A stretch of DNA of 63,091 nucleotides, counting the filler, from Circinaria calcarea (taxonomy: Eukaryota), in NCBI GenBank assembly GCA_051942165.1. It is 17 parts of 17 records of this genome, joined end to end, with 100 filler letters (N's around TTAATTAATTAA, not from the genome) between each part and the next. Parts side by side here need not be neighbours in the genome. Positions count along the whole stretch, not along the records: positions 40,933 to 44,547 come from JAVECS010002723.1; 16 more parts are not named here. One strand, 5' to 3'. Position numbers and translations under genes: made by a program. Of the stretch, positions 40,933 through 43,141 are shown in pieces. Each line of letters starts with the position of its first letter. Within the stretch, counting starts at the first letter, position 1. Below the pieces are notes generated by a model that saw only the letters and a list, made by a program, of their open reading frames with translations, did no database searches and was not told the DNA's origin.

Positions 40933-43141
40933 CCTTCGCAGCACCGAGTTTACAGAGATCGAGGCTCCAGACAACACCGAGTCTCTATTCTCCGGTGGCC
41001 CTGGCGAAAGCGTTGTCGGGGAGGATAATCGGACCAAAGTCAACAAGAAAGATCTCATGCCTGGTGGCAAGTACCGCTGTAAGCCTTCCTGATACGGTCT
41101 TTTTCGTAAGAAAGCACTCTAATTGGACGTTAGCTATTGTAAAATTGTTCCTTCGCTTTGCTGGCCAAGCCGACAGCTCCCCTTGGGCAATGGCTACAGG
41201 TTGGCTCATCAATGGCGACACGATTGTGACCGCCGGCCATTGCGCCTATGATTGGTCGCACAATCTCGGAAGGCTGACGCACGTTAAGGCGTACATTGGC
41301 TATTACGGTAAAGAGTCGATCAAGGACAACAGGAACTCTGCCGTGCAGTTTCGTACAGCGAAGCGAGTCGCGGTTCTTGAAGATTGGCTTACTAATGGAG
41401 ACAACGAGCCTCGAGACGTAGCATTTATACAGGTCGATCCGCCATTCAACGGGATCAAGCCCATCAAACATCAGCCAACCCCGTTGACTGGCACGAACGT
41501 GGTTCTGGGCGTGGTAGGCTACCCTGGGGACCTTATGAATCCTAAATCGAAAGAGAGGGGTGCGGTCAGTTTTCTCCTCCTGATGCCTTGATCTCTAGCC
41601 TAAAACCTATTAGTTCATGTACGAGATGTATCTTGGTACAAACTTTGATGTCTCCAAGACAAAGAACAAGATGCTTCAATATACAATCGACACTTATGGA
41701 GGTAACTTGATGGCTGACATAGTAATACTACCTTTGCTAATTTTTCTCAGGAAATTCTGGCTCCCCAGTAATTCGTAAGCCAGATATGGCCTCTATAGGG
41801 GTACATGTCCTCGGCGGAAATCCGAACTCTGCCTCAGTCATCTCAGGCCCTTATGGTAATTCGTTCGATGCTCTCGGTGCAGCTCTCAACGTAAAGCAGA
41901 AAGGTTCGCAGGGAGATAGTGAGGCTACAGTTGACGGCAACGAAGCGGATTGGCTATCGTGGATAACAATTCCGATCAAGGAACAATTCTCCGGTGGTGA
42001 AGCTGACATGCCCGCCGAACAGGATACTGGGTGTCATGACAAAGAAACAGATCACTCTGAAACTACTACCCCTACCGGTCAACCGGACTCTGAAAGCGGA
42101 TCTGATGAAGAATTTTTCAACTTTATACGAAAAGCCTTAAGAGTCGCCGGGCCAATGGGGATGATTGCAAGCGCGGGTTTGAGCGTGGCCGGCAAGCTAC
42201 TTGCGAGGAAGAAAGAATCAGCAATTGACGAGGCTTATTCCTTTGACGGTGTAGCTGAACGGGCTCTGCTTGGAGAGGCTGCACTGGCGGCTGTCGTACA
42301 ACTTGGCCCTTCCAAGTGTAAAAACCTGGGCATATTCAAGCGGATGCAACCCACGATTCGTAATCTTCAGCCAATTTACCGACGCGCTGGGCCAGCGATC
42401 ATACCGTTTGTTATGGAACGTGCTTGGCGTATGACAGCGGCACCAACGATGTTGACTGCGGAGAAAAGCGCCGAGGAACCCATTGAGTTACCGCGCCCCG
42501 TTCACTCCGCCGATACCAATACCGTTGTTTTTGGTCCCCGTCTCGATGTGAATTCCGAAGCTTTCGTTGAAAAGTTGACAGAGAGCCTCAGCGCTGAGGG
42601 AACTGAAGCTTTTGCTGACACTGAATCCGGTATCGGCACCATCATTGGCAGAGCAATTCGCGTAGCTGGCCCAGTGTTGGGAGGTCCTGCATTGGCAGGG
42701 ATTGTTCGTGTTGTGGGACGCCTGGTTGAAGCGGATCTCGATCAAGACACCGAAGCTGAATTTAACAACCCAGAATCTTCAGCGTATACTTATAACGCCA
42801 TGACGCAACGAGCCATTGCCGGTGAAGCAGCTTTAGGAGCCCTTTTACAGACACCCGTTGAGGTGTTGGAACAAGAGGGATTTTGGAATAAAATCAACGG
42901 TCCCTTGATCAAATACGGTCCCAAGTTCCTGAAGTTCGGGGTTGGACTACTAACCGAGGCGGATATAGCCGCAGTAGCTGCCAGTCTTGAGACTGTGAGA
43001 AAAGTCGCCGAGACGCAAGCGGGTGATCGTTTAGACTCTGATACTGCGGGGAAGCCAGGAAATGGGGAGCCTGTTGAAGATGACACAATGACTGAAGTTG
43101 GCGAGGCAGATTTTCTAGCCGAACTTCAAAATGGCTTCTAA
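40933..43141 (+). CDS. Glutamyl endopeptidase-like (S1B/V8) serine protease with a duplicated C-terminal region (5' truncated); exons 40933-41078, 41134-41564, 41614-41701, 41751-43141
   Basis: E|SVVGEDNRTKV mature-start motif and catalytic triad motifs TAGHC, DVAFI and DTYGGNSGSP, plus IGVH. Three GT-AG introns give one frame. Confidence 0.9.

Follow-up and report, generated by a model that had tools for sequence, protein, structure and literature searches.

The candidalysin precursor Ece1 and other Kex2-processed peptide polyproteins are secreted, contain no folded domains and are processed at dibasic sites by a protease of the Golgi that is encoded separately. Glutamyl endopeptidases have been described in bacteria and in RNA viruses. 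In those of the V8 type (family S1B), the S1 site is completed by the free alpha-amino group of the N-terminal Val of the mature enzyme. According to a 2017 review of these enzymes, His213 and Ser/Thr190 are mandatory elements of the S1 pocket in V8, the Bacillus intermedius glutamyl endopeptidase (BIGEP) and Esp; the words “fungi” and “eukaryot” do not occur in it (PMC5508998). The same review describes Glu-specific 3C-like serine proteases of RNA viruses (SeMV-pro/VPg, arterivirus nsp4), which rely on S1 residues His213 and Thr190 and cut their own polyprotein in cis after Glu (PMC5508998). In fungi, gasdermins are paired with proteases (HET-Q1/HET-Q2, clustered S8 or CHAT proteases), and proteolysis serves as the switch, as set out in PMC12881547. 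Here, we analyzed a stretch of 63,091 nucleotides of Circinaria calcarea DNA (hereafter the window), in which a spliced gene encodes a glutamyl-endopeptidase-like protease followed by a long C-terminal tail. A preliminary description of this gene had proposed a self-processing polyprotein, whose protease excises membrane-lytic peptides from its own tail. Our results lead us, with somewhat better than even confidence, to a different reading, namely that of an undescribed family of S1B proteases, intracellular, glutamyl-endopeptidase-like and of the zymogen type, which carry a folded, duplicated helical domain with a possible membrane-interacting or regulatory role.

The fungal family resembles the bacterial S1B glutamyl endopeptidases (BIGEP, structure 1P3C; V8 of Staphylococcus aureus; Esp of S. 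epidermidis) in the chymotrypsin fold, the catalytic triad, the S1 His and Thr and the presence of a propeptide, and in the alignment Val1 of 1P3C is matched by its predicted mature N-terminus, V-[IV]-G-x-D-x-R. It differs from these enzymes in its intron-bearing genes, in having no signal-peptide-like N-terminus, in the position of a Glu at −2 and not −1 to the aligned Val, and in the addition of an acidic linker of ~60 residues and a helical domain of ~350 residues. The viral 3C-like proteases are the nearest precedent for the idea of a built-in protease and share the same S1 logic. In contrast to these, the fungal gene is cellular and vertically distributed, its downstream part is a single duplicated domain and not a series of distinct proteins, and cleavage is only proposed. 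The likeness to Ece1 is one of concept, a membrane-active helical peptide placed between processing sites of a precursor, whereas the homologues of the fungal protease are predicted to fold compactly and show neither a signal peptide nor a dibasic pattern. With the fungal gasdermin pairs, as portrayed in the source cited above, the family would share an intracellular protease and a possibly membrane-active partner, but the protease belongs to S1B and not to S8 or CHAT, a fusion takes the place of two neighbouring genes, and the tail has no detectable gasdermin similarity.

Gene structure and protease domain

The gene lies on a contig of 3,615 bases (40933-44547). Based on open frames and GT-AG junctions, it was modelled as four exons at 40934-43141 on the forward strand, truncated at the 5′ end:

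40833-40932, no strand: artificial contig joint, N44-TTAATTAATTAA-N44, which cuts the 5′ end of the gene
40934-41078, forward: exon 1, running open into the contig end; carries the last part of the propeptide (…TEFTEIEAPDNTESLFSGGPGE) and, as aligned, the mature N-terminus (S)VVGEDNRTKV
41134-41564, forward: exon 2, first beta-barrel with the catalytic His (41238-41240) and Asp (41415-41417); match to Pfam Trypsin PF00089, E 3.3e-8
41614-41701, forward: exon 3, FMYEMY…QYTIDTYG, with the S1 Thr at 41692-41694
41751-41920, forward: first part of exon 4 (41751-43141 in full), in which the protease domain ends; the catalytic Ser (41756-41758) lies in GNSGSP and the S1 His (41804-41806) in IGVH

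Since the frame runs open to the 5′ end of the contig, the N-terminus is missing; measured against a homologue of 736 amino acids (P0016), the lost part comprises about 45 residues. A database protein of 671 amino acids (P0004), annotated at its source as a partial hypothetical protein from a C. calcarea metagenome-assembled genome, is 100% identical over the queried tail region, and tblastn places it on exactly these four exons; its record, too, gives a contig of 3,615 bases.

Beyond the Pfam match of exon 2, the nearest solved relative by sequence is 1P3C (phmmer E 1.9e-9), and the nearest relatives of the AlphaFold2 model by fold are the glutamyl endopeptidases 1P3C, V8 and Esp (1P3C: Foldseek E 8.7e-12, target-normalised TM-score 0.80). 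In the alignment with 1P3C, DTYGGNSGS pairs with DTFSGNSGS, IGVH with VGVH, and VVGEDNRTKV, aligned from residue 2 of 1P3C onward, with the mature N-terminus. The catalytic triad is conserved across the family (His in 24/25, Asp in 27/28, Ser in 48/50 sequences). The S1 His of IGVH is invariant (87/87), and the S1 Thr column of DTYGG, aligned to DTF of 1P3C, holds Thr in 29 and Ser in 3 of 42 sequences. Both the intact His/Asp/Ser protease and the Glu-type S1 determinants named in the preliminary description are borne out by these comparisons, the latter also by the S1 elements listed in the review. Judged from its sequence, the protease is S1B glutamyl-endopeptidase-like, with an intact active site, Glu-type S1 residues and a predicted specificity for Glu.

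At the propeptide junction (E-S-V), a Glu stands two residues ahead of the aligned mature Val in 19/22 sequences. This conserved residue, to which self-activation at E|SVVG had been ascribed, is indeed compatible with such a step. A short motif, [VI]-W-[DS]-L, is conserved in most propeptides about 25-30 residues upstream of the junction.

None of 25 Met-started full-length homologues showed a signal-peptide-like N-terminus, defined as a best 10-residue Kyte-Doolittle mean of at least 2.2 within the first ~40 residues. This criterion is a hydropathy heuristic and not a trained predictor, and it was applied to the homologues, the gene's own 5′ end being missing. The family is thus apparently intracellular, and secretion of its products for antagonism outside the cell, one of the roles suggested before, is unlikely because of this count.

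Predicted structure and repeat architecture of the tail

The full protein of 671 amino acids was predicted by AlphaFold2 with a mean predicted local distance difference test (pLDDT) of 83.2 and a predicted TM-score (pTM) of 0.62 from a 106-sequence alignment. When modelled alone (352 amino acids, 121 sequences), the tail reached a pLDDT of 82.4 and a pTM of 0.81 and formed 16 helices. Searching the tail model against the PDB with Foldseek gave no match at E ≤ 1e-3, and VIA-align against 48,161 chains gave a best Z of 3.0, with Bak at a Z of 2.4, which is within noise. The tail is therefore predicted to be one confident all-helical domain without a known relative in sequence or fold, and not the string of peptides and spacers envisaged earlier. 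A single stable globular domain, which the preliminary description had itself named as one half of what would speak against it, is what the model predicts. The features of the tail are as follows:

41921-42106, forward: acidic linker between protease and tail, predicted disordered (residues 289-323 of the 671-residue model at pLDDT <50), with repeat expansions that vary among homologues
42107-42439, forward: tail repeat 1, holding segments 1 and 2; in order, a helix capped by E-E-F-F-N, the Gly/Ala-rich helix RVAGPMGMIASAGLSVAGKLLA, Glu155 in a loop, the AERALLGEAAL helix and the Pro-punctuated helix GIFKRMQP…FVMERAWR
42113-42214, forward: segment 1, Glu on both sides, no Asp or Glu, seven Lys and Arg
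42278-42415, forward: segment 2, Glu on both sides, no Asp or Glu, seven Lys and Arg
42440-42544, forward: inter-repeat linker of lower confidence (pLDDT 53-67 at tail residues 121-150)
42545-43027, forward: tail repeat 2, holding segments 3 and 4; in order, a helix capped by E-A-F-A-D, RVAGPVLGGPALAGIVRVVG, Glu326 in a loop, the TQRAIAGEAAL helix, the E-G-F-W-N helix, which bears GP motifs, and one more helix
42626-42727, forward: segment 3, Glu on both sides, no Asp or Glu, four Lys and Arg
42878-42955, forward: segment 4, Glu on both sides, no Asp or Glu, four Lys and Arg
43028-43141, forward: acidic stretch of low confidence (mean pLDDT 57 for tail residues 321-330 and 49 for 331-340), with EADFLAELQNGF, a C-terminal motif specific to the clade, and the stop codon

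Homology between the first and second half of the tail (BLASTP E 2e-9, with 29% identity across 116 columns) agrees with the internal duplication noted before. In the consensus repeat, an acid-capped aromatic helix, E-E-G-F-F-D-x-L-K, leads into a Gly/Ala/Pro-rich, moderately hydrophobic helix or hairpin and a conserved loop Glu; a near-invariant ERAxLGEAAL helix and a second, proline-punctuated E-E-G-F-F-D helix make up the latter half. The motif E-E-G-F-F-D-x-[LM]-K occurs four times and heads each amphipathic helix.

The acidic linker shows lineage-specific tandem expansions (columns 316-406 of alignment A1). In one homologue (P0007), a DGTEA(N/D) unit is repeated about eight times, and in another (P0014) a unit of ~13 residues is present in three copies. 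These expansions suggest that the length of the linker is free to vary.

Conservation of the acid-free segments and of glutamate

All four Glu-flanked, acid-free segments of the preliminary description were found where it had placed them and with the same numbers of Lys and Arg. The acidic nature of the tail was confirmed as well, since the product from last-exon residue 57 onward contains 64 Asp and Glu against 36 Lys and Arg in 406 residues. The four longest acid-free runs total 140, which was matched by 1 of 20,000 composition-preserving shuffles, and the longest single run of 46 was matched by 289 of 20,000. Acidic residues are clustered in the tail, yet this is expected of any protein that consists of hydrophobic helices and acidic linkers.

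Conservation of the segments was counted in 24 close homologues, 22-24 of which were usable per segment:

Segment 1: acid-free in 16/23, mean net charge +5.4, Glu directly before in 1/23 and directly after in 19/23
Segment 2: acid-free in 4/24, mean net charge +5.8, Glu directly before in 23/24 and directly after in 24/24
Segment 3: acid-free in 2/24, mean net charge 0.0, Glu directly before in 22/24 and directly after in 24/24
Segment 4: acid-free in 11/22, mean net charge +3.1, Glu directly before in 22/22 and directly after in 2/22

The acid-free, cationic character on which the idea of four peptides was built is poorly kept across the homologues. As regards the proposed Glu boundaries, those before segments 2, 3 and 4 and after segments 1, 2 and 3 hold, whereas those before segment 1 and after segment 4 do not. 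Ahead of segment 1, the usual pattern is D/E-E-G-F-F, which shifts the Glu by one position. Behind segment 2, Pro comes directly after the Glu in 13/24 close homologues, and the consensus of the wider family reads EPALR at this place; when 121 sequences are aligned, fewer than 50% have the Glu before segment 3. Furthermore, the family consensus for the start of units 1, 3 and 4 is G-F-F-D, Asp included, and the GIG start was found in few sequences only. Three of the eight proposed cut points, i.e. the start of segment 1 and both ends of segment 2, lie within confident helices.

The 121-sequence alignment contains 34 columns conserved at 75% or more. Glu occupies eight of them (last-exon product positions 119, 155, 169, 175, 285, 326, 358 and 375) and Asp none. 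Each of the Gly/Ala-rich hydrophobic hairpins is bracketed by conserved Glu (columns 119/155 and 285/326), with Glu frequencies of 0.80-0.94. Glu155 and Glu326, which follow the hairpins, are located in lower-confidence loops (blocks at pLDDT 68).

With these data, the excision of four cationic amphipathic lytic peptides by a self-activating protease, which acidic spacers would keep inactive until they serve in antagonism or cell death, appears very improbable. The existence of the segments, the Glu-type S1 residues, the conserved junction Glu, six of the boundary residues, the prominence of Glu over Asp among the best-conserved columns and the persisting positive charge of segment 1 are all in line with it, but it would have to be reconciled with a tail predicted as a single confident fold, with cut points inside confident helices and with a neutral segment 3 that, like segment 2, is rarely acid-free. 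The scarcity of Glu before segment 3 in the larger alignment, the Glu-Pro after segment 2, the near absence of Glu after segment 4, the Asp at the unit starts, the rarity of the GIG start and the 25/25 homologues without a signal-peptide-like N-terminus argue in the same direction. What stands of the polyprotein interpretation is the type of protease, the junction Glu and the conservation of Glu in the tail; the fold, the acid-free segments, several of the boundaries and the signal peptide do not support it. The four “peptides” are best read as conserved helices of the tail domain with its predicted fold.

Membrane leaning and possible functions of the tail

Hairpin 1 is longer in most family members than in the C. 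calcarea protein, with a median of 56 residues and a median longest uncharged run of 26 residues. Its median best 19-residue Kyte-Doolittle mean is 1.50; values of at least 1.6 were reached in 37/118 sequences and 2.0 in none. The hydropathy of the hairpin is thus borderline and unlike that of a classical transmembrane anchor. In the C. calcarea protein, the hydrophobic moments of the tail helices range between 0.10 and 0.72, and the four most amphipathic helices show 0.41-0.72. A transmembrane anchor was considered as a candidate feature and rejected, because no 19-residue window with a mean of 2.0 was present in any of the 118 sequences.

In the reading that we prefer, that of a cytosolic protease with a folded helical domain, the enzyme would be synthesised as a zymogen and activated by loss of its propeptide of ~60-70 amino acids beside the conserved Glu of the E-S-V junction. 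The helical domain would position or restrain the enzyme, most likely on a membrane or lipid surface contacted through the Gly/Ala-rich hairpins and the amphipathic, proline-punctuated helices. If self-cleavage takes place at all, the acidic linkers and the loop residues Glu155 and Glu326 would be the exposed sites, and the cuts would yield domain-level pieces and not four free lytic peptides. An active cytosolic Glu-specific protease needs tight control, which makes the tail a promising candidate module, of a new kind, for regulation or membrane targeting.

Several points weigh against this reading. The conservation of Glu without Asp, next to a protease of predicted Glu specificity, would look like a set of cis cleavage sites. 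Helix capping fits the same pattern equally well, because Glu has a preference for helices, and a capping or structural role is what we assume here. Membrane binding is deduced from composition only, and no segment attains the hydropathy of a classical transmembrane segment. No structural match points to a function of the tail. Finally, the gene neighbourhood gave no functional help, as the two loci inspected out of 13 metagenome loci have no neighbour in common. One of them (L003) is flanked by genes for a FAD monooxygenase, a Zn2Cys6 factor, an adenosine deaminase, a mannitol dehydrogenase and SUR7; in the other (L008), a NACHT/NPHP3_N-type NLR-like gene is located about 4 kb downstream on the other strand.

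The bracketing of the hydrophobic hairpins by conserved Glu, together with the lower-confidence loops behind the hairpins and their borderline hydropathy for insertion, may alternatively point to a tail that acts as a whole. It could represent a latent, gasdermin-like membrane-permeabilising effector of regulated cell death, freed or unfolded by self-cleavage at the linker or at the post-hairpin Glu. A protein that the signal-peptide heuristic places inside the cell and that is predicted to have a Glu-specific protease built in would suit this role, and proteases control fungal gasdermins according to PMC12881547. We nevertheless regard it as unlikely: neither Foldseek nor VIA-align revealed a fold likeness above noise to gasdermins, Bcl-2/colicin-type domains or alpha-pore-forming toxins, and no NLR or other sensor gene is conserved nearby, the NACHT gene being present in one of the two loci inspected. 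Moreover, the word “trypsin” is absent from PMC12881547. A cell-death device acting in cis, in which the activated cytosolic Glu-protease cuts the hairpin-bracketing Glu of its own tail and so frees or unfolds membrane-permeabilising helices, seems distinctly unlikely to us. If true, it would constitute a cis-encoded counterpart of the protease-gasdermin pairs, built on a new fold, in filamentous fungi.

A purely intramolecular function of the tail, be it inhibition by a C-terminal domain, a chaperone role or the recruitment of substrates to a platform, would dispense with the membrane altogether. The tail is obligately linked to the protease among the 58 members scanned (see below), it is predicted as a confident independent fold, and the long flexible acidic linker could bring it to the active site. 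However, the pTM of the full-length model is lower than that of the tail alone, which means that no fixed docking is evident, and VIA-align found no inhibitor-like fold among the 48,161 chains; this explanation is unlikely, too.

Distribution of the family and domain partners

A search with the tail alone retrieved 24 homologous proteins. Using a profile of the tail against 1.84 billion proteins, we obtained 354 representatives at E ≤ 1e-3, of which 228 remained at 1e-10 and 81 at 1e-30. By source names, the family spans the Pezizomycotina, including Lecanoromycetes, Eurotiomycetes (Aspergillus), Sordariomycetes (Podospora, Fusarium, Colletotrichum and Beauveria), Dothideomycetes, Geoglossomycetes and Orbiliomycetes. 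Named members are AN3407 of Aspergillus nidulans and Pa_5_12420 of Podospora anserina as well as proteins from Fusarium, Beauveria, Colletotrichum, Xylariales, Lasiodiplodia, Glutinoglossum and Dactylella. Their annotations are all hypothetical or generic, with “ATP synthase F1” as a spurious label in some cases. The tail family is thus large, undescribed and distributed across the Pezizomycotina, and the C. calcarea gene is not a one-off.

Pfam scanning of 58 members detected Trypsin or Trypsin_2 in 26, while 32 remained without any match. All five of the latter that were inspected start within the C-terminal part of the protease and hence are last-exon fragments. No partner domain of the tail other than the protease was found among the 58 members, apart from non-ribosomal peptide synthetase (NRPS) domains in a single model of 1889 amino acids. 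In this model (P0102), the protease and part of the tail are joined to NRPS AMP-binding and condensation domains, probably as a result of merged gene models. Four members (P0027, 633 aa; P0174, 896 aa; P0032, 969 aa; P0041, 938 aa) extend 150-300 residues beyond repeat 2 at the C-terminus, and these extra residues gave no Pfam match in those that were scanned. The L008 locus (9974-11463 and 15586-16716, for the homologue and the NACHT-type gene together) harbours a homologue with 47% identity, in which three open frames that overlap one another share the last-exon region; a frameshift, a pseudogene or extra introns could account for this.

The tail itself has no match in Pfam, NCBIfam, PADLOC or the PDB sequence profile search. 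The matches from PADLOC were generic ones to the trypsin domain (RT-Protease_XI, LmuA, Avs1b), none of them to the tail, the PDB sequence profile recovered a short piece of the protease at an E of about 0.1, and the ESM Atlas query with the tail reached a best score of 0.78, which is below lead level. A search for the identifiers AN3407 and Pa_5_12420 had no hit among 8.1 million PMC articles and among 0.36 million preprints, supplementary tables excluded. Literature searches combining glutamyl endopeptidase with Pezizomycotina gave no paper, and the fungal, horizontal gene transfer or ascomycete angle yielded nothing relevant among the matches listed.

Glutamyl endopeptidases, so far a matter of bacteria and RNA viruses, are hereby joined by a family that is widespread in filamentous fungi and apparently devoid of signal peptides. 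AN3407 and Pa_5_12420, two genes of model species, belong to this family and yet carry no functional annotation.

Other features of the window

The window (1-63091) consists of 17 contigs of about 3.6-3.7 kb each, joined by N44-TTAATTAATTAA-N44 linkers. Because the adjacency of the contigs is artificial, the other open reading frames of the window are no genomic neighbours of the protease gene. These features are:

3628-3727, 7354-7453 … 59387-59486: contig linkers, N44-TTAATTAATTAA-N44
39501-39830 and 40460-40831, forward: two Pfam DUF3435 pieces on the preceding contig (E 8e-4 and 1e-12), in different frames with broken open reading frames between them
44995-46293, reverse: open frame of 433 amino acids on the following contig, with a DUF7924 match (E 3.5e-24) and Ser/Gln-rich low-complexity ends
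52073-52360, forward: fragment of a C2H2 zinc finger with which another contig begins (zf-C2H2, E 1.3e-5)

The two DUF3435 pieces look like what remains of a decayed copy of a fungal element of the DUF3435 type, cut by the end of its contig.

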